Positions 7,764-52,684 of a stretch of DNA of 64,000 nt are shown in pieces. Below the pieces are notes generated by a model that had not been told where the DNA came from, made no database searches, and worked only from the letters and a program-made list of their open reading frames with translations. Origin of the DNA: Acidobacteriota bacterium (lineage in GTDB: Bacteria; Acidobacteriota; UBA6911); NCBI GenBank assembly GCA_012729555.1, contig JAAYCX010000012.1:86519-150518 (forward strand), read 5' to 3'. Position 1 is the first letter of the stretch; every line of letters begins with the position of its first letter. Both the position numbers and the translations under genes were made by a program.

Positions 7764-9497
7764 CTACCGCCAGTCGTCGATCTTGACGCTCCGGCCGTAG
7801 CGCAGCCCGCCGATGCTGTAATAATTATTGTTCGTCCCGCCGGTGACGATGATGGCGGTGTTGGAAAACCCGCCCATCATCGGCGGCATCTCCGCCTTGG
7901 GGGCCGGTTTCGCCTGGGCCCCGCCTTCCGGCTTCGCCTTGGGGGGCGCCATCTTTCCCATCGGGAACTGCGGCGCCGGCTCCAGGTACCTTTCAAACTT
8001 CTCCACAGTGTCGTAGCCCGCGTTCTTGATGAACTGGGCGATCGGGGGGCTCAGCACCGCGCAGGCTCCGAACAAAAACCCCTGCTGGTCGAAGATGTCC
8101 TTGATGATCTTGGGATAGTCCATCTCCTTTCCCCAGCTGGCGGCCTTCCAGTTGGCGGCCGAGAGCACGCCCCAGCCCTCGAAGAGGCTGACGATGTTCT
8201 CCCCCTTTTTGAACCCCTTGCGGACCGAGAGGGGGGCCCAGGGGGACTCCTCCTCGTTCTCGGCGATCACGATGTTGATCAGGTTCATCGGGTTGCCGAC
8301 GACGCCCATGTAGGTCGTCCCCACCTTGCCGCAGTTGCCGAGGTTGATCGACATCAGCGACCAGGCGCGCCCGATGGTGGTGTTGGCGTGGGCGTAGGGC
8401 CCCATGGCCCCCACCTTGGAGTTCAGGCCGATCTCGTCCCGGATGGCCCCGTTGATGACCAGGGCGCCCACGAAGGAGTTGTCCGACACCGAGATCGCCT
8501 CCTTCCCGGTGGAGGCCACCGCGAGGAGGAGGGGGAAATATTCCGGCTTGCACCCGGCCATGACCGCGTTCACCGCCACGTCCCGGACCGTGTAGGTCCA
8601 GTCCTTGAAATAGGTCCCGGTCTGGGTGGGCGACATCCTGCCCACGATCTCGTCCGGTTCGTGGCTCGTCCCCTTGAGCATGTCATCGACCCGCTCCGGG
8701 GTGGGCAGCACGATGGGGAGGAAATCGGTGTAGCGTTTTTCCAGAAACATCCTGTGCAGGTTTTCGGCCGTGTCGGTGAAGGTGCCCGGCCCCCGGCTCT
8801 GCTCGACCTTCCCCGTCCGCTTCTCTTCGGCCGTCAGCGGCTTGGTGAATTTTTCGACGATCTCCCGCATGACGGGCTGGCCCGTGATCGGGTTTTTTCC
8901 GTTGATGACGTCGCGCCGCAGTTCGTCGCGCGTCTTGGCCCAGACCGGGCCCCGGATCCACTGCGTCCGCAGCCCCGGCAACCCCTCCTGGAGCGCCTTG
9001 TCGACCTCCTGCTCGTAGAACTCGGAGAGGACGATCGGGACGGCGGGTTTGTTCAGCTTGGTTTCAAAAGTGATGGCGTGGCCGACAACCGCCGGCGCAC
9101 ACTGGCTTCAATGACCCAGGGCGATGATGATGCCGTCGGCCTTCTCCTTCATCTCCGCCCAGAGCTCCGGGTCCTCGGCGTCGAATCCTCCGCCCCCCTT
9201 GCGCTTGAACACGGTCGTGGTCCCGGGATGGTTCGCCTTGAACCAGTCCTGGATCTCGTAGAGCAGGTTGTCGCCGCCGATGAACCCGTCATCGACGAGG
9301 TAGATCGTCTTCCCCTCAAGCGTGTCGAGCCGGGGCGCCATCTGCTGGAGCGTGATCGGCGGGGGCGTTCCGAGCGGGTTCAGCACGGTGATCTTCTCTT
9401 CCGCGGCCGCCGCGGCCCGGCCGTCGAGGGCCGAATACGTGCAGGACAGGCCGAGGCACAGCAGCGCGATCAGGACTACGGGTTTGTGCCACTTCAT
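7764..9497 (-). CDS. Secreted selenoprotein paralog, in-frame TGA (Sec) at 9108..9110; same two-domain architecture as 1543..3294
   Basis: ATG 9497 with GGAGGAG RBS; signal peptide MKWHKPVVLIALLCLGLSC; ORFs 9108..9533 and 7764..8981 are in the same frame; read-through gives GIIIALGH-U-SQCAPAVVGHAITFETKLNKPAVPIV... conserved with paralog; both end KVDDWK/KIDDWR. Confidence 0.6.
9078..9100 (-). other. Candidate SECIS-like stem-loop 3' of UGA (minus strand)
   Basis: GUG-C-GCCG[GCGGUUGU]CGGC-CAC hairpin beginning 7 nt after UGA; G/U-rich apical loop. Confidence 0.3.
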
Positions 9498-9670
9498 AGG
9501 GACTCCTCCGTTGAATGCTTTGTGATACGACAATCCCCCGGGGCCCGGCCTTCGCTCGAACCGGCCCAGGGCATCGTCCTCCGAGACGTTCCAGCATAAT
9601 GCGGCCCGTCCCGGAAATCCCGATAAAAATCGCCTGGTTCCCCTCCCGCCGCGCTGCGGTTCTCATGGTG

Positions 9671-25586: not shown

Positions 25587-26672
25587 ATGGCTTCGAAAAT
25601 TCTGGCTGTCGATGACGACCCGCAGGTGGCAAAGCTGACAGTGCTGCTGCTCGAGGGGCTCGGGTACGAGGCGCTGGGCCTGACCGATCCCCGCCGGGCC
25701 CTCGACGCCGTCCGCTCCTTCCGGCCCGAAGCCTGCATCGTGGACCTCAACATGCCCTTTGTCTCCGGCTCCGACCTCCTCGACCAGATCAGGGCCGAGA
25801 GTCCGCACACGGAGGTCATCCTGCTCACCGGAATGGACGACACGTTGATCGCCGTCGATTTCATGAAGCGGGGGGCCGCCGACTTCCTCCTCAAGCCGAT
25901 CGGCGCCGAGCAGCTGGATGTCGCCGTCACCAGGGCCCTGGAACACCGGCGCCTGCTGCTGGAGAACGCCGCTTACAAACAGGGCCTGGAGGCGCTGGTC
26001 GAGGAGCGGTCGCGGGCGCTCAACGAAGCGCTCTCCAACCTGGGCGAACTCCACGAGGCCACCATCGAAACGCTGGCGCAGGCTTTGGACATGCGCGACC
26101 AGGGGAGCGGCGGGCATTCGCGCCGGGTGGCCGACATGACCGTGGGGATCGCGCGCCACCTGGGGATCCGCGACGGGCAGCTCGTGCAGATCGAGCAGGG
26201 GGCGCTGCTGCACGACATCGGCAAGCTGCGGATCCCGGACAGCATCCTCTGGAAACCTTCGGCCCTCACCCCCGCGGAATGGGACACGATGCGGCGGCAC
26301 CCGGAGTACGGGTACGAGTTCGTCAGCAAGATCGGATTCCTGAGGGGCGCGGCCGACATCGTGCTCTCCCATCACGAACGCTACGACGGCTCGGGGTATC
26401 CCCGCGGCCTCAAGGGGGACGAGATTTCGCTCGGCGCCCGCATCTTCTCCATGGTCGACACCATCGACGCCATCCTGTACGACCGCCCCTATCACCGGGC
26501 CTCCGCCTTCCCCGTCGCCCGGGACGAGATCCTCGGCAAAGCGGGCACCCACTTCGACCCCACCCTGGTCCGCCCCACTCTGGAACATCTGGAATCCTGT
26601 TTCCATAACCCCGGGCGGGCGCGCGGAGACGGGGAGGCCGCATCCAGGGAAAACAACGGAGGCCACCCATGA
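25587..26672 (+). CDS. Response regulator with HD-GYP phosphodiesterase output domain
   Basis: Receiver domain (DDD..., phospho-acceptor D in IVDLNMPF, K at LLKP); HD-GYP motifs HDIGK and DGSGYP. Confidence 0.85.
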   Translation: MASKILAVDDDPQVAKLTVLLLEGLGYEALGLTDPRRALDAVRSFRPEACIVDLNMPFVSGSDLLDQIRAESPHTEVILLTGMDDTLIAVDFMKRGAADFLLKPIGAEQLDVAVTRALEHRRLLLENAAYKQGLEALVEERSRALNEALSNLGELHEATIETLAQALDMRDQGSGGHSRRVADMTVGIARHLGIRDGQLVQIEQGALLHDIGKLRIPDSILWKPSALTPAEWDTMRRHPEYGYEFVSKIGFLRGAADIVLSHHERYDGSGYPRGLKGDEISLGARIFSMVDTIDAILYDRPYHRASAFPVARDEILGKAGTHFDPTLVRPTLEHLESCFHNPGRARGDGEAASRENNGGHP

Positions 26673-27418
26673 CAGGAAAAGAAGCAGTGCGCCTGGCGGC
26701 GGGGCTCGCCCTGTTTTTTGCCGGATGGGGCCGGGCCGTGGAGGAGGGGGCGCGCGGGCCGGACCACGCCGGGTTCCGGGAGTGCGCCGAGTGCCACGCG
26801 CAGCAGGACGCCGCCTGGCGGTCGTCCGCCCACAACCCGGCCACCGGCTGCCTGCGGTGCCACGAACCGGCGGCGAATTCTCCGGGCAGGCTGGCCGCGG
26901 AGCCGGAGGCCCTCTGCTCCTCCTGCCATTCCCAGCGGGCCGTGCTCAGGGGAACGGGGGCCGAGGGGATCGAGGAGACCCGCAGCTTTCACTCCGGCGT
27001 CGCCTGCGTCTCCTGTCACATGACGGGCGGCGGCCACGGCATGAAGCTGCTCCGTCCCGACGACCCCGCCCTGCCCGAGGACCGGGTCGACAGCTGCACC
27101 GCGTGCCACAAGGACAACAACCGGAATACGCGCGCGCGCCAGCTCCGGGACTGGCAGGCATGGTATCGGGAAACCATGGAACCCCTCCAGGCGGGCCTGG
27201 CCGAAATCGAAGCGCGGATGAAAGATCGTCCCGATCTCTTCACCGACGAGGCCCAGCGGAAACTCTCCGGCGTCCGGCGCAACCTCGCGATCATCGAGCG
27301 GGACGGCTCCGCCGGGGCGCATAACCTGGACTATGCCCTGGAAATCATGGCTCTGGCCTCCCGCCGGCTCAAGGAGATCGGTGCGGCGACGGCTCCCGCC
27401 GGGCTCGGGGGACAGTGA
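26669..27418 (+). CDS. Secreted pentaheme c-type cytochrome
   Basis: Signal peptide; five CxxCH motifs (CAECH, CLRCH, CSSCH, CVSCH, CTACH); start overlaps HD-GYP stop by 4 nt. Confidence 0.75.
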   Translation: MTGKEAVRLAAGLALFFAGWGRAVEEGARGPDHAGFRECAECHAQQDAAWRSSAHNPATGCLRCHEPAANSPGRLAAEPEALCSSCHSQRAVLRGTGAEGIEETRSFHSGVACVSCHMTGGGHGMKLLRPDDPALPEDRVDSCTACHKDNNRNTRARQLRDWQAWYRETMEPLQAGLAEIEARMKDRPDLFTDEAQRKLSGVRRNLAIIERDGSAGAHNLDYALEIMALASRRLKEIGAATAPAGLGGQ

Positions 27419-27437: not shown

Positions 27438-28106
27438 CTATCTCGAGCGTTTGAGGCCGATCCGGGGGCAGAAGCGGGCGACCGGGCAGCGGCTGCACCA
27501 GGGGGAGGAGGGGACGCAGAGGTTCTGGCCGAAGGTGACCAGGATGTCGTTGAGGCTGATCCAATGGCGCCGGGGGAGCTTCCGGCGCAGGGCGGACTCG
27601 GTCTCGTCCGGGGTCCGGGTCGCCACGTAGCCCCACAGGTTGCAGATGCGGTGGACATGGGTGTCCACGCAGATGCCGTAGTCCCCGAACCCCACGGTGA
27701 GCACCAGGTTGGCCGTTTTCCTCCCGACGCCGGGCAGCGCGAGCAGCCCGTCCATGGACCGGGGCACCCGTCCCGAATGCTCCCGTTCGAGGCGGAGCCC
27801 GATCGCGACGAGGTGCGCCGCCTTGGTACGATAGAAGCCGACGGGGTAGATCAGCCGCTCCACCTCCTCCCGAGCGAGTCCGGAGAGCGCCCGTGGAGTC
27901 GGCGCCCGCCCGAGCAGGCGGCGCGAGGCGGCCTCGGTCACCTTGTCCCTCGTGCGCAGCGAAAGGACGGTGCTGACCAGGGTTTCGTAGGGGCGGTCGA
28001 CCGCCCCGTCGGCGATCACCCCCACCGCCGGGACTTTCCATAGAGGGAGTTCCCGCTTGAGCCGGGCCAGCACCCTGCCCAGCGTCCGCGTATCCATCCC
28101 TTTCAA
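27438..28106 (-). CDS. nth: Endonuclease III (DNA glycosylase/AP lyase)
   Basis: HhH-GPD region LPGVGRKTANLVL and [4Fe-4S] cluster C-x6-C-x2-C-x5-C at C-terminus. Confidence 0.8.
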   Translation of the reverse strand: MKGMDTRTLGRVLARLKRELPLWKVPAVGVIADGAVDRPYETLVSTVLSLRTRDKVTEAASRRLLGRAPTPRALSGLAREEVERLIYPVGFYRTKAAHLVAIGLRLEREHSGRVPRSMDGLLALPGVGRKTANLVLTVGFGDYGICVDTHVHRICNLWGYVATRTPDETESALRRKLPRRHWISLNDILVTFGQNLCVPSSPWCSRCPVARFCPRIGLKRSR

Positions 28107-28579
28107 GGAAGCGCCGGGATCTGGAAGACCGGACCGAGGGCCGAGCGTTTCGGGGCAAGGGCGCGCATGGAAGGCTCCGGGAGGAGTTCCAGGGGTTTGA
28201 TCCCCGACGGGGGGAGGGTGGGGCCGTTCCAGGTCATCATGCCACCGGCGTTGTACACCCGCTCGTAGCCTTCGGACGCCAGGTAGTTCGCCGCGAAGGC
28301 CGCGCGGCCGCCGGTCCGGCAGTAAACGACGACGGCCCGGTCCTTCGGGATCCGGGCCGATTCCCGCATGAAGGGCTCGGGCCAGGCGAGGTGGTAGGGA
28401 CGGCAGGAGTCGTTGCCGATGACGGCGTCGATTTCCTCGATCGTCCTCAGGTCGATAAGGATGAAGTCGAAAGCCGCCCCGCCGGACAGGAACCCCGCCA
28501 GCTGGCCCTGCGCCATCGGGCTGACGGCCGCGTGGCCCGCCGCAACCGCAAAAAGAATCAAAAGCAGGATCTTTTTCAT
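28103..28579 (-). CDS. Periplasmic rhodanese-domain sulfurtransferase
   Basis: Signal peptide MKKILLLILFAVAAGHA; active-site loop CRTGGRA; 4-nt overlap with nth start. Confidence 0.7.
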   Translation of the reverse strand: MKKILLLILFAVAAGHAAVSPMAQGQLAGFLSGGAAFDFILIDLRTIEEIDAVIGNDSCRPYHLAWPEPFMRESARIPKDRAVVVYCRTGGRAAFAANYLASEGYERVYNAGGMMTWNGPTLPPSGIKPLELLPEPSMRALAPKRSALGPVFQIPALP

Positions 28580-28716
28580 GAAATGTCCCTCAAAAACCGC
28601 ATTCTTGACCTGGATCAATCCCATCCGTCCCCCCTGTCTTCATTATTGCAGGTGTAGGGCGCAAAATAAACCCGCGGGTTGAGGATGCGCGATAACATGA
28701 AAAAGGAGGGGCGAAA

Positions 28717-29562
28717 ATGAAGCGCAACATAATCCGGATCGACCAGGAAAAATGCACCGGGTGCGGCCTGTGCGTGTCGGGGTGTCCCGAAGGCGCGCTG
28801 CAGCTCATCGACGGCAAGGCGAGGCTGGTGGGAGACCTGCTCTGCGACGGCCTCGGCGCCTGTATCGGCCAATGCCCCGAGGGGGCGCTGACGGTGGAGG
28901 TACGGGAGGCGGAGGCGTACGACGAAATCCGGGCGCTGGGCAACATCGTCCCCCAGGGGCCGAACGTCCTCGCCGCCCATCTCAAGCACCTGAAGGACCA
29001 TCGTCAGGAGGAGTACCTCCGCCAGGCCGTCGCCTACCTCGAGGAAAACGGGATCCCGTTCGACCCTCCCGCCGACAACGCCCCCGCCGCGCCCGCCGCC
29101 GGGTGCCCCGGGTCCCGGAGCGTAACCTTCGCACCCAGGAGAGAGGGGGAAAACGACGGGGCGAAACACCCCTCGAGGTTGACCCACTGGCCGATCCAGC
29201 TCCACCTGATCTCCCCGGCGGCCCCGCAGTACCGCGACGCCGACCTGCTGATCGCGGCCGATTGCGTCGCCTTCTCCCACGGAGACTTCCACCGGGACTT
29301 TCTCGAGGGGCGCGCCCTGGTCATCGCCTGCCCCAAGCTGGACGCGCGCCAGGAGGCCTACGCCGAAAAACTGACGGCCCTGATCGAGCAGGCCCGCTCG
29401 GTCCGGATTGCCATCATGCAGGTCCCCTGCTGCGGCGGCCTTCTCAACCAGGTGCTCCAAGCCGCCGCGCGGGCCGGGCGCAAGCCTCCCATGAGCTGCG
29501 TCGTCGTAGGGCTGGAAGGGGAAATCCTCCGCGACACCCCCGTGGAGGCGGGTGCGGCCTAA
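28717..29562 (+). CDS. 4Fe-4S dicluster ferredoxin-domain protein
   Basis: Two CxxCxxCxxxCP motifs (CTGCGLCVSGCP, CDGLGACIGQCP) at N-terminus; C-terminal domain with CC pair, unknown function. Confidence 0.55.
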   Translation: MKRNIIRIDQEKCTGCGLCVSGCPEGALQLIDGKARLVGDLLCDGLGACIGQCPEGALTVEVREAEAYDEIRALGNIVPQGPNVLAAHLKHLKDHRQEEYLRQAVAYLEENGIPFDPPADNAPAAPAAGCPGSRSVTFAPRREGENDGAKHPSRLTHWPIQLHLISPAAPQYRDADLLIAADCVAFSHGDFHRDFLEGRALVIACPKLDARQEAYAEKLTALIEQARSVRIAIMQVPCCGGLLNQVLQAAARAGRKPPMSCVVVGLEGEILRDTPVEAGAA

Positions 29563-29765
29563 TCCTCGAGGATGAAGGTGACCTTCAGCTGAACCCGGAA
29601 TTCGGTCACCCGGCCGCCGTCGTCGACGACCACTTCCTGGTTTTCGATCCAGGCGGATTTGACGTTCTTGAGGGTCTTGGAAGCGCGGGCGACCCCTTCC
29701 CTGATGGCGTCTTCAAAGCTCTTGGCGGACGATGATTTGATTTCGGTAACGCGTGCGATGGCCAT
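29559..29765 (-). CDS. Dodecin family flavin-binding protein
   Basis: ~68 aa, pattern IELIGSS...FEDAIREGVARASKTLKNV....E.....V.....V.LKV.F.LE typical of dodecin. Confidence 0.55.
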   Translation of the reverse strand: MAIARVTEIKSSSAKSFEDAIREGVARASKTLKNVKSAWIENQEVVVDDGGRVTEFRVQLKVTFILED

Positions 29766-29837
29766 GAGAGGCTCCTTTTGATAGAGGATTGAGGGAAAAG
29801 CTATGGATCCCATTGTACCACAAAGCCCGCGCGCGCG

Positions 29838-31523
29838 TCAGGATCGGGGTGGCGCGGCCGGGTAGCCCAGAGCGGCCAGCGCGTGCGGGATCGAGAGGTA
29901 TCGATAGGTCTCGCCGTATTTTTCCCCCCACCCGGCGTGCTCGACCAGGTCCCGCACCGGCCCCTTCATCCCGGCGAACGCGAAGCGGATCCCCTGGTGG
30001 GCGTACGCCTCCATGAGTTCCTCCAGTTCGTCGATCGAGACGGCGTCGATGTCGTTGACGCCCGAAAGATCGAGCAGGATCAGTTTCACCCCCGGACGCC
30101 CGGAGAGGTCCCCGGCCAGGCGGTCCTCCAGGAATTTCATGTTGGCGAAAAAGAGGGACGCGTCCGGCCGGAGAATCAGGACCTCGGGGTGGCGCTTCAC
30201 CTCCGGGTAACGGAGGACGTTGCGGAACACCCCCTCGCTCTCGAGGTACCCGAGCTCGGCGGTGTGCGGGTGCGAACTGCGCCAGATGAAAAGCCCCAGG
30301 GAGAAGACCATCCCGATCAGGAGCCCCCGATCGAGCCCCACGCCCAGGGTGCAGGCGAAGGTGATCAGGAGGATCGCCCCGTCCGATTTCTTGATCCGGA
30401 AAAGGCGGATGGCGTCGCGGGCGTCGATGAGGCCGACGACGGCCACGATGATGACGGCGGCAAGGACCGCGTTGGGGAGGTGATAGAACAGCGGAGTCAG
30501 AAAGATGAGGGTGAGCAGGATGAGGGCGGCCGTGACCAGCGACGCCACCTGGGTGCGCGCGCCCGACTGGTGATTGACCGCCGTCCGGGAGAACCCCCCG
30601 GTCACCGGGTAGCCGGAGGAAAACGCGGCCGCCATGTTGGCCGCGCCCAGGCCGATCAGTTCGCGGTTGGGGTCCACCTTGTACCCCGACTTCGCCGCCA
30701 TGTACTTGGCCACCGATATCGATTCCATGAAACTCACGAAGACGATGGCCAAGGCGTCCAGGAAGAGCTCCTGGATCGCCAGCGGGTTGAACGAGGGGAG
30801 CGACAGGGGCGGGAGGCCGCGCGGCACCTCCCCCACGGTCCGGATGCCGAGCTCCCCCCAGGTCCAGGTCAGCAGGGAGCCCGCGATGACGAAGAGGATG
30901 GCCGAGGGGAGCCGTGGATACATCTTCCGGAGCACTACCATCCCGGCGATCGAGGCGAGGCCGAGAACCAGGGTCGGCGCGTGGATGTCCCCCGCCCCGC
31001 GAACGATTTGCTCCAGCAGTTCGAAGACCGAATGCCCCCCGCCCCCTTCCACTCCCATCAAATGCCGGACCTGGCTCAGCGCGATGACCAGGGCGGCGGC
31101 GGCCGTGAATCCCCCGATGACGGCGTGGGAGAAGAAATTGATCAGGAAACCGAACCGGAGCAGGCCGGCCGCGAGCTGGAGGACGCCCACCATCAGGGCC
31201 AGCAGCAGCACCAGGCGCACGTATTCGGGGGAGCCCGGGGGCGCGAGGCGCGAGCAGGCGGACAGGGTGAGGAGCGAGGCCATCGCGACCGGGCCGACGG
31301 CGAGATGGCGCGAACTTCCCAGAAACGCGTAGACGGCGAGCGGGATCACCGAGGCATAGAGCCCGATGACCGGGGGCAGTCCCGCAAGCATGGCGTAGGC
31401 CATCCCCTGCGGCACCAGCATCACCGCGATCGTCAGCCCGGCGGCGGCGTCGGCGGAGAGATCCCCCCGGTCATAGCCCGGCAGCCATCCCCGGCGCCTG
31501 CGGGTGGAACGCGCCATGGTCAC
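29838..31523 (-). CDS. SulP family anion permease with C-terminal STAS domain
   Basis: SulP TM core and STAS domain (ILLDLSGVNDIDAVSIDELEEL); 561 aa. Confidence 0.85.
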   Translation of the reverse strand: MTMARSTRRRRGWLPGYDRGDLSADAAAGLTIAVMLVPQGMAYAMLAGLPPVIGLYASVIPLAVYAFLGSSRHLAVGPVAMASLLTLSACSRLAPPGSPEYVRLVLLLALMVGVLQLAAGLLRFGFLINFFSHAVIGGFTAAAALVIALSQVRHLMGVEGGGGHSVFELLEQIVRGAGDIHAPTLVLGLASIAGMVVLRKMYPRLPSAILFVIAGSLLTWTWGELGIRTVGEVPRGLPPLSLPSFNPLAIQELFLDALAIVFVSFMESISVAKYMAAKSGYKVDPNRELIGLGAANMAAAFSSGYPVTGGFSRTAVNHQSGARTQVASLVTAALILLTLIFLTPLFYHLPNAVLAAVIIVAVVGLIDARDAIRLFRIKKSDGAILLITFACTLGVGLDRGLLIGMVFSLGLFIWRSSHPHTAELGYLESEGVFRNVLRYPEVKRHPEVLILRPDASLFFANMKFLEDRLAGDLSGRPGVKLILLDLSGVNDIDAVSIDELEELMEAYAHQGIRFAFAGMKGPVRDLVEHAGWGEKYGETYRYLSIPHALAALGYPAAPPRS

Positions 31524-32077
31524 ACTCCAGATTTCTCCAGGAAGCAGAGAAGCGCGAAAATCGCTGCGGCCACGACCGCCACCACCACCCAGGCGTTGAG
31601 CTTGAGGATCTCGGGAATCGTCCGGGCGCCGAAATCCCCCCGCTCCAGGACCGGTTTCTGCAGGGCGGGATAGGCTGCGGCGAATATCCCGGCCCCGATC
31701 AGGATGCCGAGAACGCCGCCGAACAGGGCGTCGAGCGACCCCTGCCCCACCGCCCCCGCCGCCGTCCCCGGACAGTAGCCCAGGATGCCGAAGCCGAGTC
31801 CGAAGATCAGCCCGCCCGGGACGATGGCGCCCATGGACCCCGGCTTGGGGTGGAGCCGGGCCAGGCCCAGGCTTCGGAGGGCGTGGACCCCGATCATCCC
31901 GGTCAGGACGGCGCTCAGCATGATCTTGACCACCGTAAAATCCTCGAAGAGCAGCTGCCCGATGATGACGTCGAACCGGGTCGCCCCCCCCCTTTGGAGC
32001 AGGAAGCCGAAACCGATCCCCAGGAGGAAGCCCAAAGTCAGCTGCAGCCCTTTCCTGCCATGTATCGCCTCGAGCAT
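31520..32077 (-). CDS. YeeE/YedE family sulfur-compound transporter, second half
   Basis: 185-aa multi-TM protein with GxxxG-rich helices; RBS AAAGGGGGGG; ORF-track N-terminal extension rejected. Confidence 0.6.
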   Translation of the reverse strand: MLEAIHGRKGLQLTLGFLLGIGFGFLLQRGGATRFDVIIGQLLFEDFTVVKIMLSAVLTGMIGVHALRSLGLARLHPKPGSMGAIVPGGLIFGLGFGILGYCPGTAAGAVGQGSLDALFGGVLGILIGAGIFAAAYPALQKPVLERGDFGARTIPEILKLNAWVVVAVVAAAIFALLCFLEKSGV

Positions 32078-32088
32078 GCGCCCCCCTT

Positions 32089-32616
32089 TCAGAGCAGAAC
32101 CCGGTAGATCAGCATCGCGGTGGCGATGCCGCCGGCGAAGAAGCAGACGACGGCGAGCCAGCTGCTCGCCGCCAGCTGCAGCGTCCCGCTGATGCCGTGC
32201 CCGCTCGTGCACCCCCCGGCCCAGCGGGCGCCGATTCCCATCAGAACCCCGCCCGCCAAGGCGACGCCCCAGCGGAGGAGGCCGCTGTCTCCCGCCGCCT
32301 CGCGCCACAGCGGCGGGACCCAGGCCAGTCCGAACCCCCCCGAAAGGAGGGAGGAGAGCAGCGCCCCCAGGACGATGCCCACGACGAGCATCCACTCCCA
32401 GTCGATCACCGGGGCGAACTGCCGGTAATAGGGCTTCTCGACGACCCCTTTTCCCCTGAAGGCCTTTTCGATCATCCCGCTGCTGCGCGCGAACGCGGTC
32501 GAACAGCCGATGGGCTTGTCCGAGAGCAGGAAAGCGAGCCAGCTCAAAACGCCGATGCCGGCCCCGACGGCGTAGGGCGACCAGCGTTCCATCGTCAGCC
32601 AATGCAGCCAATCCAT
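32089..32616 (-). CDS. YeeE/YedE family sulfur-compound transporter, first half
   Basis: Conserved GCTSGHG motif, ~5 TM. Confidence 0.65.
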   Translation of the reverse strand: MDWLHWLTMERWSPYAVGAGIGVLSWLAFLLSDKPIGCSTAFARSSGMIEKAFRGKGVVEKPYYRQFAPVIDWEWMLVVGIVLGALLSSLLSGGFGLAWVPPLWREAAGDSGLLRWGVALAGGVLMGIGARWAGGCTSGHGISGTLQLAASSWLAVVCFFAGGIATAMLIYRVLL

Positions 32617-32673
32617 GGCAACCTCCCGAACCCGATAACGGTTTTCGTCTCCCCCCTCCCCGAGGCGATGTTC

Positions 32674-34086
32674 CTACGAGGTCCTCGGGACGTGCGGCGC
32701 CACGCACATGGGACATTCGGGGCTGAACCCCGCGGCGCTGTATCCCGTCATGCCGCCGGCGACGTTGCACACGTTCGCAAAACCCGCCTGCTTGAGCAGG
32801 GAGGCCGAAAGGCTGGAGCGGTGCCCCGTGCTGCAGATCACGGCCACCGGCCGGCTCTTCTTCAGGGAACCGTGCCGGGTACGCAGGTCGGGAGCGGGAA
32901 TATTGACGGCGCCCTCGATATGAACGGCTTCGTACTCGCCGGCGGCCCGCACATCGACCAGCGTGAGTTCCGACCGCCCTTTCATGAGCTGGTTCAATTC
33001 CCGGACCGAAACCTGCGGCACGTGCCCGGTCGGGAGCCCTTGGCGCGACCACTCGAACATGCCGCCGTCGAGATACCCCACGACGCGGTCCAGGCCGACG
33101 CGCCGGAGCAGGACGCCGGCCTCGTAGGCCTCCTCGCCCGATCCGGCCACGAGCAGGATGTCGTGGTCGGGCGGGAGGACCCAGCCGGCGAAGGTGGAGA
33201 AATTCCCGCTGATGTCGATGTTGTACGCGCCGGGGACATGCTGCCCGCCGAAGGCGTCGTAGCTCCGGATGTCGAGCACGATCGTGTTCTTCTTTCCCGC
33301 GGCCTTGCTGAACCGCGCGGGGTCCATCAGGAGAATGCCGGGGAGGGTGTGGACCCTGGCGGGCCCCTTGCCGTTGATGGCGCTGCAGCGGCTGAAATGG
33401 TCCGGGGCTGCCGGCATGTCGGTGGTCAGCGAGCGGATGAACTGCTCGCGGTCCGGGATCTGCAGCGCCGGGTTGCAGCGCCGCTCGTACCCGATCGTCG
33501 TCCAGCGTTTCGCCCCCATGGCGCGCCCGCAAAGGCTGCCGGCGCCGTGGGCGGGATAGACGTCGCAGAAATCGGGAAGCGCCATGAGCTTGCCGTGGAG
33601 GCTGTCGTAGAGCTTATGGGCCAGATCGCGCGCCTTGCCGGGGAAGAGGTCGGGCCGGCCGACGTCGCCGACGAACAGGGTGTCCCCGCAGAAAACGGCC
33701 GCCGGCTCCTTTCCGCGGCTGCGGTCGGTGACGACATAGCTGATATGCTCCGGGGTATGGCCCGGGGTCTCCAGCACCCGGATGCTCATGTTTTCGATCC
33801 GGAAACTGTCCCCTTCCGCGACCGCGCGGTGCCTGAAGCGGCATTTGGCCGATTTGGGGGCGTAGATCACCGCCCCGGTGGCGTCCGCCAGGTCCAGGTG
33901 CCCGGAAATGAAATCGGCATGCAGATGGGTTTCCAGGATATGGGTGATCTTCATCCCCATCTCCTCCGCGGCGTGCAGGTACACTTCGATGTCGCGCTGC
34001 GGGTCCACGATGGCACAGGTGTCCGTCCCGCCGAGGAGGTAGGAACTGTGCGCAAGGCCTTTCACGAAAAACTGTTCTACATACAT
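32674..34086 (-). CDS. Persulfide dioxygenase (MBL fold) fused to tandem rhodanese domains (CstB-like)
   Basis: MBL metal motif THLHADFISGH, two rhodanese domains with C-terminal catalytic CSTGHRS. Confidence 0.8.
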   Translation of the reverse strand: MYVEQFFVKGLAHSSYLLGGTDTCAIVDPQRDIEVYLHAAEEMGMKITHILETHLHADFISGHLDLADATGAVIYAPKSAKCRFRHRAVAEGDSFRIENMSIRVLETPGHTPEHISYVVTDRSRGKEPAAVFCGDTLFVGDVGRPDLFPGKARDLAHKLYDSLHGKLMALPDFCDVYPAHGAGSLCGRAMGAKRWTTIGYERRCNPALQIPDREQFIRSLTTDMPAAPDHFSRCSAINGKGPARVHTLPGILLMDPARFSKAAGKKNTIVLDIRSYDAFGGQHVPGAYNIDISGNFSTFAGWVLPPDHDILLVAGSGEEAYEAGVLLRRVGLDRVVGYLDGGMFEWSRQGLPTGHVPQVSVRELNQLMKGRSELTLVDVRAAGEYEAVHIEGAVNIPAPDLRTRHGSLKKSRPVAVICSTGHRSSLSASLLKQAGFANVCNVAGGMTGYSAAGFSPECPMCVAPHVPRTS

Positions 34087-34285
34087 ATCTCATCTCCTGT
34101 CTGAGGTGCGTGGGAAAGATGCCGATCGATCATCTCGTTCTTTTACCCTAAATCCGAGCCCCCTGTCATCGCAAATCGGCGCCGGCGGCCCGGCCGCGGG
34201 GGGGTTGACACGTCCCGCGGGCCGATGGACAATGCCATCGGCCCCCGCTTCGGGGAGCGCGCACAGGACAAGGAGAGCATCCCCC

Positions 34286-35290
34286 ATGAGCCGATTCACA
34301 TTGACCCTGTTGGCCCTGTTTCTCACGGCGGCGCCCGCCCCGGCCCAGACGGAAGCGCGGGACGGCGGCCTCGTCGTGCTCCGGGTGGCGGGCGAACCGA
34401 TTACGGAAGGCCGGCTGCTGGAGGTCATCGACGACCTGGCGCGGCAGCAGGAGATGACGCTCGAACAGCTCCGGCAGCGCAACTCGCTCCTGTTCGACGA
34501 CGCGATCGACAGCATCGTCACCGTCACCCTTTTGAAGGAACAGGCCGGCAGGGGGAAGGTAACGGTGGACCCGTCGAAGGTGGACGCGGCCATGGGGGAA
34601 CTGCAGAAGCGCTACACGTCCCCCGAGGCTTTCGCCGCCGCCCTCGAGCAGCAGGGGATCACGGATGCGGCGCTGAGGTCGAACATCGAACAGAGCCTGG
34701 CGGTGCAGCAGGTGCTCGAAGGCGTCATCCGCGGCGTGCCCGAGGCGACCGGGGCCGAGGTGGAAACCTTCTACGCCGACAATCCCGACAAGTTCTCCCT
34801 GCCGGAACGGGTGCACGCGGCCCATATCCTGTTGCGGGCAGGGGCCGGGGATACGCCGGAGCGGAAGCTCGCGATCCGGAAGAAGCTCGAAGCGCTCCGT
34901 GCGGAAATCGAATCGGGCGCCGTCGCCTTCGCCGACGCGGCGGCGAAACACTCCGAGGACACGGTCACGGCCTCCCGGGGGGGGGACCTGGGGGTCTTCA
35001 TCCGGGGCCAGATGCCGAAGCCGTTCGAAGACGCCGCCTTTGCCGCCCGTCCCGGGGCCCTCTCCCCGGTCGTGGAAACCCAGATCGGCTATCACCTCAT
35101 CCGGACGATCGAGCTGAGGCCCGCGGGACAGGCGTCGCTGGAAGAAGCCCGTCCGGCCATTAAAAAGCACCTGGACCAGCTCTCGCAACAGGAGGCCACG
35201 AAGGCGTTCCTCGACGGGCTGAAGGCCGGGGCCAGGATCGAGTCCTTCATGACCCGCGAGGAATTCGCCCGGCGGCACCCCGTGGAGTAG
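34286..35290 (+). CDS. Periplasmic parvulin-type peptidyl-prolyl isomerase (SurA/PrsA-like)
   Basis: Signal peptide; parvulin PPIase core HILLRAG...GGDLGVF...GYHLIRT. Confidence 0.7.
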   Translation: MSRFTLTLLALFLTAAPAPAQTEARDGGLVVLRVAGEPITEGRLLEVIDDLARQQEMTLEQLRQRNSLLFDDAIDSIVTVTLLKEQAGRGKVTVDPSKVDAAMGELQKRYTSPEAFAAALEQQGITDAALRSNIEQSLAVQQVLEGVIRGVPEATGAEVETFYADNPDKFSLPERVHAAHILLRAGAGDTPERKLAIRKKLEALRAEIESGAVAFADAAAKHSEDTVTASRGGDLGVFIRGQMPKPFEDAAFAARPGALSPVVETQIGYHLIRTIELRPAGQASLEEARPAIKKHLDQLSQQEATKAFLDGLKAGARIESFMTREEFARRHPVE

Positions 35291-35308
35291 GGGCCGCCCG
35301 GCCGGGGA

Positions 35309-37153
35309 TCAATCCCCGTCCTCTCCCGGGAGGACGCGCACCGCCCCCTGGTCGGCCGAGGCCGCAAACAGGGCGTAGGCCCGCAGCGCCTCGGACACCT
35401 TCCGGTCGCGCCTCGGCTTGAAAGCCGCCTTCCCCCTGGCCAGCTCCTCCCTCCTGCGCGCCTCGAGTTCCCCTTCGCCGACCCGGACTTCGATGGTCCT
35501 GGCGGGGATGTCGACGGCGATCGTGTCCCCGTCCCTCACCAGGGCGATCGCCCCTCCGGAGGCGGCTTCGGGCGACACGTGCCCGATGCTGAGCCCGGAG
35601 GTCCCCCCGGAAAACCTGCCGTCGGTGATGAGGGCGCATTCCGTCCCCAGGTGCCGTGACTTGATATAGGAGGTGGGGTAGAGCATCTCCTGCATGCCGG
35701 GGCCGCCGCGGGGCCCCTCGTAGCGGATGACCACCACGTTGCCCGCCTGTACCTCCCCGCCCAGGATCCCTTCGCACGCCGCTTCCTGCGAATCGTACAC
35801 GCGGGCGGTGCCCGTGAAGCGGTAGATCGACGGGTCCACCCCCGCGGTCTTGACGATGCAGCCGCTGGGTGCCAGGTTGCCGGTGAGCACCGCGAGCCCG
35901 CCGTCCCTGGAATAGGAGTGTTCCGTGTCCCGGATGCACCCGTTTTCCCGGTCCAGGTCGAGCTCCGGGTAGGCGTTGTCCTGTGAGGCCAGCACCAGGT
36001 TGCGCCCCCGGGCGCCCGGCGCGCTCAGGTAGAGAGTGCGGGCCTCGTCGCCCGCCGTGGGCCGCGCGATGTCGTACCGGTCGAGGACGGCCCCGAGGCT
36101 CGGGGCGTCGACCCGGCCGACGGCCGGGTCGACGAGGCCCGCCCGGTCGAGTTCGCCCAGGATGGCCATGATCCCTCCCGCGCGGCTGACATCCTCGAGG
36201 TGGTAGGAGGAACTGGGCGCCACCTTGCACAGGACCGGGATCCGGCGCGAAAGCGCATCGATGTCGGCGAGGGTGAAATCGACCTCCGCGGCCCGGGCGA
36301 CGGCCAGGAGGTGGAGCACGGTGTTGGTCGACCCCCCCATGGCGATATCCAGGGCCATCGCGTTCAAAAACGCCTGCCGAGTCGCGATCGAACGCGGGAG
36401 GACCGAGGTATCCCCGTCCCCGTAGTAGGCCTCGGCCATCTCGACGATGCGCCGGGCTCCCTGCTCGAACAGCCCCATCCGGTTTCGGTGGGTGGCCACC
36501 AGGGTGCCGTTGCCCGGAAGCGCCAGGCCGAGCGCCTCGGTGAGGCAGTTCATGGAATTGGCCGTGAACATGCCCGAACAGGACCCGCAGGTGGGACAGG
36601 CGACGGTTTCCAGCTCGGCCACCTCCCGGTCGGGAACGGCCGGGTCGGCCGCCATCACCATGGCGTCGATCAGGTCGTAGCGCCGGTCCCCCATCACCCC
36701 CGCCTCCATGGGGCCGCCGGAGACGAAGATGGCGGGGATGTTGAGCCGCATCGCCGCCATCAGCATGCCGGGGGTGATCTTGTCGCAATTCGTGATGCAG
36801 ATCATGGCGTCGGCCGTGTGGGCGTTCACCATGTATTCGACGCTGTCGGCGATCAGTTCCCTCGAGGGGAGGGAGTAGAGCATGCCCCCGTGCCCCATGG
36901 CGATCCCGTCATCGATGGCGATGGTGTTGAATTCGGCGGCAAAGCACCCCTGGGCCTCGATGATGCCCTTGACCCGCTGCCCGATTTCGTGGAGGTGGAC
37001 ATGGCCGGGGACGAACTGGGTGAAGGAGTTGACGACGGCGATGACGGGCCTGCCGATCTGCTCCTCGCGCATGCCGTTGGCGCGCCAGAGGCTGCGGGCT
37101 CCCGCCATTCTTCTCCCCTCCGTGGACGTCGCGCTTCTGAGTCTGATTGCCAT
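35309..37153 (-). CDS. ilvD: Dihydroxy-acid dehydratase
   Basis: N-terminus [30 protein letters not shown]-type cluster region [11 protein letters not shown], 614 aa. Confidence 0.9.
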
Positions 37154-37187
37154 GATGGTCCTTTCTCCCCGGCGGCCGGCCGGGCGG

Positions 37188-37373
37188 TTACGGTTCCCCG
37201 TCGCCCGCGTGCGCCAGGGTCTTGACGATGAAGAGGGCGAAGACCGCCAGCAGCATCCCAAGGAGGAACCGGTCGTCCCCGGTCCTCACGGGCAAAAACG
37301 CGTACAGGGCGATCCCGATCAGCACGGCGTAGCACGCCAGGGCCGCGATCACCCGGCGGCGGGATCCCCTCAT
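37188..37373 (-). CDS. Possible small 2-TM membrane protein
   Basis: 61-71 aa ORF with two hydrophobic helices between ilvD and Fe-S oxidoreductase genes. Confidence 0.25.
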
Positions 37374-37389
37374 CCGCCGCGACGGCCGG

Positions 37390-39423
37390 TCACTTTCGGG
37401 CATCGTCCAGGCTTTCCGCGGTCAGCGACGCGATATCGATGACACGCATGCTCTCGTCGACATTGAGCAGCTTCAGCGAATCCCCGAGCATGTGCATGCA
37501 GTAGGCGCAGCCGGTCACGATCGTATCCGCACCCGCTTCATGCGCCTGCCGGACGCGCAGGTTGTTGATCCGCTCCCCCCGCTTCAGGTCCATGAAATAA
37601 TGCCCTCCCCCCGCGCCGCAGCAGAGGCTCTTTTCGCGCCTGTTTTTCATTTCGGCGAGCTCCGCGCCCGGGATCGCCCGGAGCACCGAGCGGGGGGCGT
37701 CGTAGATCCCCTGGTAGCGGCCGAGGTAACAGGGGTCATGGTACACCATCCGCCCCCTCCCGCTCCCCGGCCGGATCCTGCCGGACGCCATCAGCCTCTC
37801 GATGTACTCGGTGTGGTGAACGACATTGTACGAGGCCCCGAACTGGGGGTATTCGTTCTTGAAAACGTTATAGCAATGGGGACACCCGGTCAGGAGCGTG
37901 TGGAACCCGCGCTGTCCGAGCAGCTCGATCTGTTCCCGGGCCGCCTGCTGAAACACCATCTCCTGCCCCAGGATACGGGCGGGGTCGCCGCAGCACCTCT
38001 CGTCCGCGCCGAGAACGCCGTAATCCACGCCGCAGCGCTCTAGCAGGCGGCAAAGGTCCTCGGCGATCCTGTGCTTCTGGGGATCGAACGTCACGCAGCA
38101 GCCGATCCAGTACAGGACATCGACCGACTCCCCCGGCTTGACCACGCGCAGCCCGGCCCGTTCGATCCAGTCGGTCCGTTCCGACTGCGGGCCGAAGGGG
38201 TTGCCTCCGGTCTCGAACAGGCGCAGGGCGCGGCCCGCTTCCTCAGGAATGCGCCCCTGGATCAGCACCTCGTTGCGCCGCAGCTCCATCAGGGTATCCA
38301 CGTGCTCGATCATGGCGGGGCAGACCTCCACGCAGGCGGCGCAGGTCCGGCAGTGCCAGATGAACTCCTCGTCGAACGCCCTGCCCACGATATCGGCCTT
38401 CTCCCCCTCCTCCGCGCCCGCCGCCTCGTCGAGCTGGGCCTTCATGCGCGCGATCAGCTGCCGCGGGGAAAAATAGTCCCGGTCCGCCATGTAGGCGGGG
38501 CAGACCTCGTCGCAGCGTCCGCACAGGATGCAGGCGTCCAGGTCCAGGCGCTGCTTCCAGCTGAACTCCTCCGGTTTCTGGATCCCGATCCGGATCTCCT
38601 CGCTTTCGGCGCTCTCCATCAGCTTCTCGATGTCCTGGCGCCGGAGCTCCCCCCGCGGCCCGAGCTTGGAGAGGAAGGCGTTGGTCGGCAGCGCCAGCAT
38701 GTGAAAGAACTTGGTGTAGGGAATGAGGGCGATCCAGCCCATGACCAGGACGGTGTGGAGCCACCATAGCGCCGCATGCGCCCCCCGGGCGGTTTCCCCG
38801 GCCATCCCCGCAAAAATCGGGCTGAGGCCCCACCCCACGAACGAGAGCTCCTTCCAGGGATCCCCGTTGGCCCCGATCCTCGCCCCCTCGACCAGGTAGC
38901 CGGTCACGACCAGGGCGGCGACCAGGAGGAGCACCAACCCGTCTTCACGGGCGACGGGGAGCGTCCCCGGCCTGGCGACATACCGGCGCCAGGCGGCCAT
39001 GCCCAGGCCGGCCAGGATCAAGAGCCCGGCCAGCTCGCTCGCCACGGAAAAGAAGACGTAGACCCCCCCCTTGAAGATCTCGAGATCCAGGCCGAACAGG
39101 AGGTTCCCATCATACTGGACCATGACGATCAGGGTGGTGATGAAAAGAACGAGGAAGGAGTAGAAGAGCAGGCCGTGCAGGAGTCCCGGGTAGAAATTCC
39201 GGCGCACCCGGTTCTGGAGCAGCGTCTCGCCCAGGAGGATCTTCAGGCGCTTTCCCCAGTCGGAAAATCTCTCGCCGTCCTCCTTCCCCCGGCGCCAGGA
39301 CCGCACGCGCCGGCACATTCCCCAGGCAAAGACGGCGACGGCAGCGGCAAACAGCACATACATCACCCAGGCCTGGGAGACATTCCACATCAGGGGGCGG
39401 GTAGCTTCGGAAAGGGGGGGCAT
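37390..39423 (-). CDS. Membrane-bound Fe-S oxidoreductase: NarI/HdrE-like cytochrome b fused to HdrD-like 2x[4Fe-4S] plus CCG domains
   Basis: N-terminal ~6 TM with conserved His; ferredoxin motifs CILCGRCDEVCP and CRTCAACVEVCP; CCG motifs (CCVTFD, CCGDP, CPHC, CCGAGGG, CAYC). Confidence 0.75.
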   Translation of the reverse strand: MPPLSEATRPLMWNVSQAWVMYVLFAAAVAVFAWGMCRRVRSWRRGKEDGERFSDWGKRLKILLGETLLQNRVRRNFYPGLLHGLLFYSFLVLFITTLIVMVQYDGNLLFGLDLEIFKGGVYVFFSVASELAGLLILAGLGMAAWRRYVARPGTLPVAREDGLVLLLVAALVVTGYLVEGARIGANGDPWKELSFVGWGLSPIFAGMAGETARGAHAALWWLHTVLVMGWIALIPYTKFFHMLALPTNAFLSKLGPRGELRRQDIEKLMESAESEEIRIGIQKPEEFSWKQRLDLDACILCGRCDEVCPAYMADRDYFSPRQLIARMKAQLDEAAGAEEGEKADIVGRAFDEEFIWHCRTCAACVEVCPAMIEHVDTLMELRRNEVLIQGRIPEEAGRALRLFETGGNPFGPQSERTDWIERAGLRVVKPGESVDVLYWIGCCVTFDPQKHRIAEDLCRLLERCGVDYGVLGADERCCGDPARILGQEMVFQQAAREQIELLGQRGFHTLLTGCPHCYNVFKNEYPQFGASYNVVHHTEYIERLMASGRIRPGSGRGRMVYHDPCYLGRYQGIYDAPRSVLRAIPGAELAEMKNRREKSLCCGAGGGHYFMDLKRGERINNLRVRQAHEAGADTIVTGCAYCMHMLGDSLKLLNVDESMRVIDIASLTAESLDDARK

Positions 39424-52602: not shown

Positions 52603-52684
52603 ATTCCCTGATTGCAACGGTTCCCCCCCATCGTCAAATGAGATACAATGCATACCTCGACCGCGTTGGCGGGTGGGGAGAGCG

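Follow-up and report, generated by a model that had tools for sequence, protein, structure and literature searches.

The window analyzed here, a 64-kb stretch of DNA with ~67% guanine plus cytosine (GC) from an uncultured, probably anaerobic Acidobacterium, encodes on its minus strand, at 29838-34086, a cassette of four genes: a CstB-like persulfide dioxygenase (PDO), the two halves of a split YeeE transporter (YeeE_A and YeeE_B) and a SulP-type anion permease. We consider it fairly likely that this mobile cassette clears reactive sulfane sulfur, i.e., persulfides and polysulfides, by uptake, oxidation to thiosulfate and export of the resulting anion. An earlier reading of the window, made from its sequence only, had joined these genes with a rhodanese, nth, a 2x[4Fe-4S] protein and a dodecin into one composite sulfur-trafficking cluster. 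All eight genes, i.e., the cluster at 28103-34086 plus nth, are where that reading had placed them; however, the functional unit is the four genes and not the whole 6 kb. The nearest genome record is an Acidobacteria metagenome-assembled genome (MAG) with 96% protein identity (locus L003), and identical metagenome contigs are present in ENA and JGI, where all eight genes were called independently.

A scan of one genome per species with peptides from the window dioxygenase recovered 65 loci with close relatives. The dioxygenase, YeeE_A and YeeE_B occur in the same order and on the same strand in 49 of the 58 loci that have at least 1.3 kb downstream (56-77% identity), while neither half is present in eight of the 58; the arrangement of this core is far beyond chance. 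The linkage of YeeE, SulP and the dioxygenase that the sequence-only reading had pointed out is therefore borne out for the core by comparison across genomes, but the genes at its periphery are not conserved. The 65 loci come from Acidobacteriota, Planctomycetota, Desulfobacterota-type lineages, Syntrophus, Geobacteraceae, Atribacterota, Fermentibacteria, WOR-3, Synergistales, Gemmatimonadota, ANME-1-type archaea and Hadarchaeota. The Hadarchaeota enzyme is 68% identical to deltaproteobacterial copies and 65% to other archaeal copies, and this placement, together with the 65-68% identity between domains, points to repeated horizontal transfer of the cassette, as judged from pairwise identities and not from a tree.

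What flanks the cassette differs between loci, and nothing but the permeases and DUF1622 recurs. An all-against-all clustering of 2509 flanking open reading frames (ORFs) returned as conserved partners only SulP, an SLC13 permease, DUF1622 and scattered families, and a Pfam census of 150 immediate neighbors indicated that the scattered families include ABC transporters, peroxiredoxins and Y-family polymerases. Neither analysis found regulators, SQR, TusA or TauE to recur in the flanks of the related loci.

The first gene of the cassette encodes the dioxygenase, a cytoplasmic protein with no hydrophobic segment by hydropathy. It consists of an N-terminal Fe-type metallo-beta-lactamase/ETHE1-like domain, a middle pseudo-rhodanese domain without Cys, the loop of which (residues 313-318) is variable and Cys-free, and a C-terminal rhodanese domain with C418. 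Its best solved relatives over the full length are 3TP9 (E 3e-89) and 3R2U (E 8e-68), and the Burkholderia PDO-rhodanese fusion BpPRF can also be detected as a relative (E 4e-27). Residues T53-H54-x-H56-x-D58-F59, H110, D135, H180, C186-G187, C418 and R423 are invariant in 181 homologues and R380 is present in 180 of the 181. The Fe-site motif of the window protein, T53-H54-L-H56-A-D58-F59, aligns to both 3R2U and 3TP9; which residues ligate the metal we presume from knowledge of the family. The C186-G187 pair lies within AHGAGSLCGR and aligns to chain residues 225-226 of 3R2U, i.e., to 201-202 once the 24-residue tag is discounted. We take 3R2U to be Staphylococcus aureus CstB because its residue numbering matches that of a 2026 preprint (PMC12934615).

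With this identification, C201-G202, C408, R370 and R413 of CstB correspond to C186-G187, C418, R380 and R423 of the window protein. The two proteins share their three domains over the full length, the Fe-site motif, the Cys-Gly loop, the Cys-less middle domain, the rhodanese Cys and the steering Arg, and they differ at position 13, which is His in the window enzyme and Gln13 in S. aureus CstB. The Alicyclobacillus acidocaldarius protein in 3TP9, named 'beta-lactamase and rhodanese domain protein', has the same three domains, with residues 1-457 aligned, and shares His13; the entry stems from structural genomics, and its record assigns no function. Since the catalytic residues of CstB are all matched and conserved, the 470-residue protein can be classified as a CstB-type enzyme by every sequence criterion, and the CstB-like label that the sequence-only reading had given to a dioxygenase with two rhodanese domains was well chosen, as the Cys-Gly loop, the rhodanese Cys and the steering Arg all match. 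CstB converts two thiol persulfides (RSSH) into thiosulfate via C201 and C408, has a strict need for O2 and Fe and releases no sulfite; its C201-G202 mobile loop is the CstB-specific site of self-S-sulfonation, a reaction that is strictly O2-dependent in vitro (PMC12934615). By analogy, the window enzyme would convert two RSSH into thiosulfate in an Fe(II)/O2-dependent manner.

The next two genes encode the halves of the transporter. In alignments with TsuA, YeeE_B covers residues 4-182 and YeeE_A covers residues 238-329. YeeE_A carries the GCTSGHG motif, and its C136, equivalent to TsuA C293, is present in 55 of 55 homologues; its C38, kept in 52 of the 55, sits at a position pseudo-symmetric to TsuA C22. 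In YeeE_B, C102 in the LGYCPGT motif, equivalent to TsuA C91, is present in all 51 homologues, and the equivalent of TsuA Cys22 is Thr. The TsuA residues to which the two invariant Cys correspond, Cys91 and Cys293, are both essential in that protein (PMC7449682), and PmpB and PmpA represent the N- and C-terminal halves, respectively, of full-length YeeE (PMC11582611). By these alignments YeeE_A can be placed with the PmpA/YedE1 type (the C-half of TsuA) and YeeE_B, which carries the NCBI name 'DUF6691', with the PmpB/YedE2 type (the N-half). The assignment of both proteins as YeeE halves was thus correct: they align with TsuA, the equivalents of Cys91 and Cys293 are invariant and GCTSGHG is present. 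A crude hydropathy analysis gives ~4 hydrophobic segments in YeeE_A and ~5 in YeeE_B. YeeE_B has an extra C-terminal helix, residues 162-180, which aligns to the central TsuA helix that PmpB lacks, and therefore the pair looks like a nine-helix YeeE split in two and not like the minimal 4+4 form of PmpAB.

YedE1E2 of Cupriavidus pinatubonensis speeds up the import of zero-valent sulfur (S0) and not its export, needs one Cys in each half and accelerates PDO-dependent oxidation to thiosulfate; import of zero-valent sulfur was demonstrated for both the C. pinatubonensis and the S. meliloti pairs, and full-length YedE3 did not stimulate S0 oxidation (PMC10812762). C136 and C102 would be the equivalents of CpYedE1 C104 and CpYedE2 C101, and by analogy YeeE_A/YeeE_B would import zero-valent sulfur. 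We also considered the pair as a TsuA orthologue and rejected this, because the NCBIfam TsuA models score 43-46 bits against cut-offs of 400 and 645. The selenium-type YedE/FdhT model NF033796 gives YeeE_A 21 bits against a cut-off of 350 and no match to YeeE_B. With scores so far below the cut-off, and with the sole selenoprotein candidate that was found ~19 kb away, the link to selenium suggested by the sequence-only reading finds no support.

The last gene encodes a protein recognizable as a SulP/SLC26 anion transporter, with a Sulfate_transp membrane domain and a C-terminal STAS domain (471 bits for TIGR00815 with a cut-off of 380, 368 bits for PF00916 and 56 bits for PF01740). A SulP gene follows YeeE_B in ~14 related loci from at least five phyla by tblastn, and it is present in 11 of the 34 loci with adequate flanks; hence its association with the YeeE and PDO genes, which the sequence-only reading had noted for this one window, is recurrent. 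Of the 34 loci, 10 have SulP only, 14 have only an SLC13/DASS-type permease (CitMHS plus TrkA_C), one has both and nine have neither. The two permeases are thus nearly mutually exclusive in the cassette. DUF1622, a small membrane protein, was seen only together with SLC13 (13 of the 15 SLC13 loci).

Some variants of the cassette can be listed. The form with SLC13/TrkA_C and DUF1622 was seen in L013, L014, L027, L029, L032, L039, L042, L043, L046 and L047, among others, including L049, L056, L061 and L067. Loci L033, L036, L041 and L062 have the dioxygenase, SLC13 and DUF1622 without the YeeE pair. L057, from Gemmatimonadota, has two tandem copies of the dioxygenase together with SLC13, SulP and DUF1622, and in L024 the YeeE_A/YeeE_B pair is followed, a few kb further downstream, by a second one.

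From the dioxygenase gene to YeeE_A the gap is 57 bp, from YeeE_A to YeeE_B it is 11 bp, and the stop of YeeE_B overlaps the start of SulP; because of this tight packing we regard the four genes as one operon. The SulP gene may start with the GTG at 31523, which overlaps the YeeE_B stop, or with the ATG at 31517; it appears to be translationally coupled to YeeE_B and to be the last conserved gene of the cassette. The dodecin gene lies 72 bp past SulP and is preceded by an extended -10 promoter-like site of its own at 29812-29841. The Fe-S gene is on the plus strand, convergent with dodecin and with a 4-bp overlap, and the rhodanese stop overlaps the nth start, with both of these genes divergent from the Fe-S gene. 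Read in this way, the eight genes form at least three transcription units, not one. A terminator scan gave as many matches as the shuffled expectation. The region upstream of the dioxygenase gene (34087-34285) has a mean identity of 89% across four relatives. It contains, between the dioxygenase gene and PpiC, an inverted repeat at 34216-34247 with 13-nucleotide arms (CGCGGGCCGATGG / CCATCGGCCCCCG), which was considered as a possible operator; it is kept in close relatives and has one arm altered without compensation in two relatives. The repeat overlaps the sole sigma-70-like match in this region, which is on the plus strand at 34205-34233 in the direction of PpiC. No helix-turn-helix or ArsR gene was seen to adjoin the cassette in the window.

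Five related Acidobacteria with long contigs have the same backbone of genes: nth and rhodanese on one strand, a divergent Fe-S/AF_0155 gene, then usually PpiC, and then ilvD, a 60-70-residue ORF and a DsrMK-like membrane HdrD fusion (Nitrate_red_gam + Fer4 + CCG). In the window this backbone occupies 27438-29562 and 34106-39423. The dioxygenase, YeeE, SulP and dodecin genes are all absent from the backbone in these five relatives (L070-L072, L074 and L076). The Fe-S gene is beside rhodanese, PpiC and ilvD in L070-L072 and L074, and its only identified neighbors in L076 are ilvD and the HdrD-like gene. The proteins of the cassette-free L070-L072 are 70-74% (nth), 57-60% (rhodanese), 63-67% (Fe-S protein) and 80-82% (ilvD) identical to those of the window and are their true orthologues. 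Because the backbone is kept without the cassette in the five relatives, the block at 29559-34086, i.e., the cassette plus dodecin, is best described as an insertion between the Fe-S gene and PpiC. One MAG even has the cassette (L059) and the backbone (L072) on different contigs. The flanking direct and inverted repeats are of chance size only and no integrase, tRNA or GC shift was found as a scar of a mobile element, and so the insertion is deduced from synteny alone.

Rhodanese, nth, the Fe-S gene and dodecin accompany the full cassette only in the 96% relative L003. A 90% relative (L005, 10001-14420) has the order dioxygenase-SulP-rhodanese-nth and lacks the YeeE pair, the Fe-S gene and dodecin; gene content at this spot thus changes fast within the lineage. 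Dodecin, which among the 65 loci occurs with the cassette only in the window and the 96% relative, is a lineage-specific passenger inside the inserted block and outside the conserved cassette. The rhodanese, nth, Fe-S protein and dodecin are therefore bystanders and not parts of the system. Four of the five relatives share the divergent rhodanese/Fe-S pair, which might form a functional unit of its own.

The sequences show what the four proteins are; what they transport, in which direction SulP works and what the enzyme does we deduce. YeeE_A and YeeE_B would form a heterodimeric membrane protein of the YedE1E2/PmpAB type, and, if the pair behaves like its proteobacterial counterpart, the two invariant pore Cys would pass zero-valent sulfur inward and generate low-molecular-weight persulfides. 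The conservation of residues suggests that the cytoplasmic CstB-like enzyme loads a persulfide on its Cys186-Gly187 loop and that the Fe(II) site and O2 oxidize the bound persulfide to Cys-S-sulfonate. The S-sulfonate would then be transferred to a persulfidated Cys418 in the C-terminal rhodanese domain, and thiosulfate would be released. SulP may export the oxyanion, a slot that SLC13/DASS, usually with DUF1622, would fill in other hosts; the direction is proposed only by comparison with the TauE of the cst and bigR operons. In anoxic, sulfidic habitats the cassette would matter when trace O2 turns sulfide into toxic persulfides. The published work on YedE1E2 with PDO and the operons with the same gene order make this course of uptake, oxidation and efflux the best supported one. 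Half of an earlier proposal survives in it: import of sulfane sulfur followed by its oxidation fits the YedE1E2 plus PDO results (PMC10812762), but the sulfite or sulfate that the sequence-only reading had named as product is replaced by thiosulfate, which is the product to be expected (PMC12934615).

The cassette is a known kind of unit in a variant composition and with an unusual host range. Among its relatives, the operons of the bigR type, such as yeeE-yedE-pdo2, likewise have two adjacent half-size COG2391 genes beside a persulfide dioxygenase, and the C-half/N-half mapping, with one essential Cys in each, is common to YedE1E2/PmpAB and the window pair. Other relatives of this type are Serratia PmpAB-BlhA and the Blh of Agrobacterium and Xylella. 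However, an ArsR/BigR-type repressor is adjacent in the bigR-type operons and none is adjacent in the window; their dioxygenase is Blh (DUF442-PDO) or the single-domain PDO2, whereas that of the window is CstB (PDO-RHD-Rhod); and their third transporter is TauE, whereas that of the cassette is SulP, or SLC13 with DUF1622. The yeeE-yedE-pdo2 operon is under BigR control in A. baumannii and Serratia (PMC7315123). The same order as in the window (CstB-like, YeeE_A-like, 'DUF6691') is found on a Cupriavidus plasmid, where the dioxygenase gene is frameshifted and an ArsR regulator is nearby. The S. aureus cst operon has CstR, CstA, SQR and TauE; neither the window nor the flanking DNA of the 65 related loci was found to contain any of them, and in place of these the cassette has the split YeeE pair and SulP; in addition, the hosts here are anaerobes and the activity of the window enzyme is a prediction. 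TsuA/YeeE-TsuB/YeeD (6LEO, 8J4C) belongs to the same PF04143 fold family, and its two essential Cys have invariant equivalents here, but TsuA is a single nine-helix polypeptide with a TusA-like partner and the window protein is split and has no such partner. Finally, a published survey found YedE1/2 almost only in Proteobacteria, whereas here the pair occurs in Acidobacteria, many other phyla and archaea.

Several observations weigh against a function in the clearance of sulfane sulfur. To judge from taxon names and sample sources, most of the hosts are strict anaerobes, although the chemistry depends on O2, and any function of the subfamily in anaerobes is a prediction from sequence and analogy. 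The known YedE1E2/PmpAB halves have ~130 residues and 4+4 helices compared with 175 + 185 residues and ~4+5 helices here, and the window halves are only ~35-43% identical to the one proteobacterial pair that was compared. The persulfide sensors CstR, BigR, SqrR and FisR, as well as SQR, are absent beside the cassette and across the 64-kb window. The dioxygenase also occurs without the YeeE pair, in the eight loci mentioned above and in the 90%-identical relative. Lastly, SulP and SLC13/DASS transporters are classically known as anion importers, and so export remains an assumption. This last point would equally suit an assimilatory importer, in which the YeeE pair takes up thiosulfate like TsuA, SulP takes up sulfate or thiosulfate and the rhodanese domain cleaves thiosulfate so that sulfite and a persulfide become available to biosynthesis, in line with the proposal for BpPRF, itself a detectable relative of the dioxygenase. 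TsuA is indeed closest to the halves among the solved structures and the NCBIfam models. We think such an importer quite unlikely, however, because the scores of the TsuA models are so low, no cys or assimilation genes are adjacent, the host habitats are sulfide-rich and the enzyme keeps the CstB-specific Cys-Gly loop, which makes rather than consumes thiosulfate (PMC12934615). It was also the split YedE1E2 that imported S0, while full-length YedE3 did not stimulate its oxidation (PMC10812762). In addition, the TusA/YeeD-type partner that is reported to be essential for uptake by TsuA (as cited in PMC11582611 and PMC13047784) is missing: a six-frame search of the window for the CPxP motif of TusA/YeeD found none, and in related loci a partner of this type is rare and >5 kb distant. 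The sequence-only reading had proposed a search for TusA/DsrE partners elsewhere; no TusA, DsrE or SQR genes were found in the window.

The O2 puzzle leads to another explanation, namely that the enzyme is an O2-independent sulfurtransferase or hydrolase acting on persulfides or polysulfides, or that it removes O2 with persulfide as a sacrificial reductant, and is not a sulfide-detoxifying oxidase. The recovered subfamily is almost entirely from anaerobic lineages (ANME-1-type archaea, Hadarchaeota, Atribacterota, Fermentibacteria, Syntrophus, Synergistales and Geobacter), three loci have peroxiredoxin genes in their flanks, and the same question was raised for the Rho-PDO fusions of Desulfobulbales (PMC13047784). 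However, the taxon list is biased towards close relatives because the genomes were scanned with peptides of the window protein, and S-sulfonation of CstB depends strictly on O2 in vitro (PMC12934615). The 2-His-1-Asp iron site is complete and, like the Cys-Gly loop, invariant; this argues that the same Fe/O2 chemistry has been kept, perhaps to cope with pulses of oxygen in sulfidic environments, and we regard a function without O2 or in its removal as unlikely. One can also imagine that the CstB-like/YeeE_AB cassette, which is very strongly conserved (60-77% identity between Acidobacteria, a dozen further bacterial phyla and two or more lineages of archaea), has spread horizontally specifically among strict anaerobes, either as a defense at the sulfide/oxygen interface or for O2-independent persulfide chemistry, with interchangeable permeases and no dedicated regulator; this we offer as a tentative, rather doubtful proposal. 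It is very improbable that all eight genes serve one composite system for the trafficking of sulfur and possibly of selenium, in which the periplasmic rhodanese, Fe-S protein and dodecin would be working parts. The genes are close together, it is plausible that a rhodanese and a redox protein supply a sulfur pathway or draw from it, and the arrangement is retained in L003. Nevertheless, they occupy three or more transcription units on both strands, the four peripheral genes recur with the cassette in none of 60 other loci and are found together without it in five relatives, L005 lacks the YeeE pair, the Fe-S gene and dodecin, and the selenium-type YedE model falls far under its cut-off. Synteny thus largely refutes the eight-gene reading, and that core and peripheral genes are in different operons is an outcome that the sequence-only reading itself had named as speaking against it.

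Operons that combine PDO with YedE1E2 are already known from aerobic Proteobacteria as systems for the detoxification of sulfide and reactive sulfur. What sets this locus apart is a CstB-type enzyme coupled to a split YeeE pair and to SulP or SLC13, with no adjacent regulator in the loci examined. The cassette is widespread and under strong purifying selection in strict anaerobes, both bacteria and archaea, of digesters, sediments and seeps. An active cassette would give anaerobes a means to survive oxygen pulses in sulfidic habitats and would supply thiosulfate, as a cryptic source, to the sulfur cycle of anoxic environments. In practice, genome annotations should treat the cassette as four genes and leave out the rhodanese, ferredoxin-like protein and dodecin nearby.

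Table 1. Coordinates of the cassette, its upstream region and the neighboring genes in the 64-kb window.
Feature	Position	Strand	Description
nth	27438-28106	-	endonuclease III-like DNA glycosylase, HhH-GPD + HHH domains
Rhodanese, single-domain	28103-28624	-	PF00581, CRTGGR active site
2x[4Fe-4S] + AF_0155 protein	28717-29562	+	Fer4 families, PF27217
Dodecin, 68 residues	29559-29765	-	PF07311, 75 bits
SulP-STAS anion permease	29838-31523	-	TIGR00815, PF00916, PF01740
YeeE_B, 185 residues	31520-32077	-	PF04143, 53 bits, profile positions 13-148
YeeE_A, 175 residues	32089-32616	-	PF04143, 92 bits, profile positions 168-309
CstB-like dioxygenase, 470 residues	32674-34086	-	Lactamase_B + two Rhodanese domains (Pfam)
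Intergenic region, dioxygenase / divergent PpiC/SurA-like gene	34087-34285		presumed site of the cassette promoter

The neighboring genes were annotated as well (Table 1). The nth protein scores 167 bits with TIGR01083, which is below the cut-off of 211.7. The likely start of the rhodanese gene is the ATG at 28579, and the only hydrophobic segment of its product, residues 4-22, is read as a signal peptide; this segment and the overlap of the rhodanese stop with the nth start agree with the periplasmic rhodanese, co-transcribed with nth, that the sequence-only reading had described. The dodecin is assigned by its domain match (the cut-off for PF07311 is 22.5 bits) and scores 45 bits with the NCBIfam bacterial-dodecin equivalog, below the cut-off of 75; flavin binding is predicted at most. 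The Fe-S protein has a C-terminal AF_0155 domain (PF27217) and five further invariant Cys (C130, C183, C205, C238 and C239). Its family, which has a His-rich helix (AHLxHLxDH), is 60-70% identical across thousands of metagenome proteins. A sequence search of the PDB with this protein matched the ferredoxin domain only. Its AlphaFold model, built with 30 homologues, is poor (predicted local distance difference test 64.5, predicted template modeling score 0.44), and with this poor model Foldseek gave no match at E <= 0.001.

A scan of the remaining ORFs of the window for other sulfur-pathway genes found none. Directly beyond nth, at 25587-27418 on the plus strand, an HD-GYP response regulator is translationally coupled to a multi-heme cytochrome c of 249 residues, and nothing was found that connects this pair with the cassette. 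The window lacks tRNA genes, including one for tRNA-Sec. The selenoprotein candidate is at 7764-9662 on the minus strand, where an in-frame TGA at ~9108-9110 joins two strongly coding ORFs; the sequence around the TGA would read '...IIIALGH-U-SQCAPAVVGH...', and the upstream part matches the Pfam UGSC family (PF24696, E 3e-8). Finally, a very large ORF of ~2270 residues, with a strong coding signature, is present at 52673-59488 on the plus strand.

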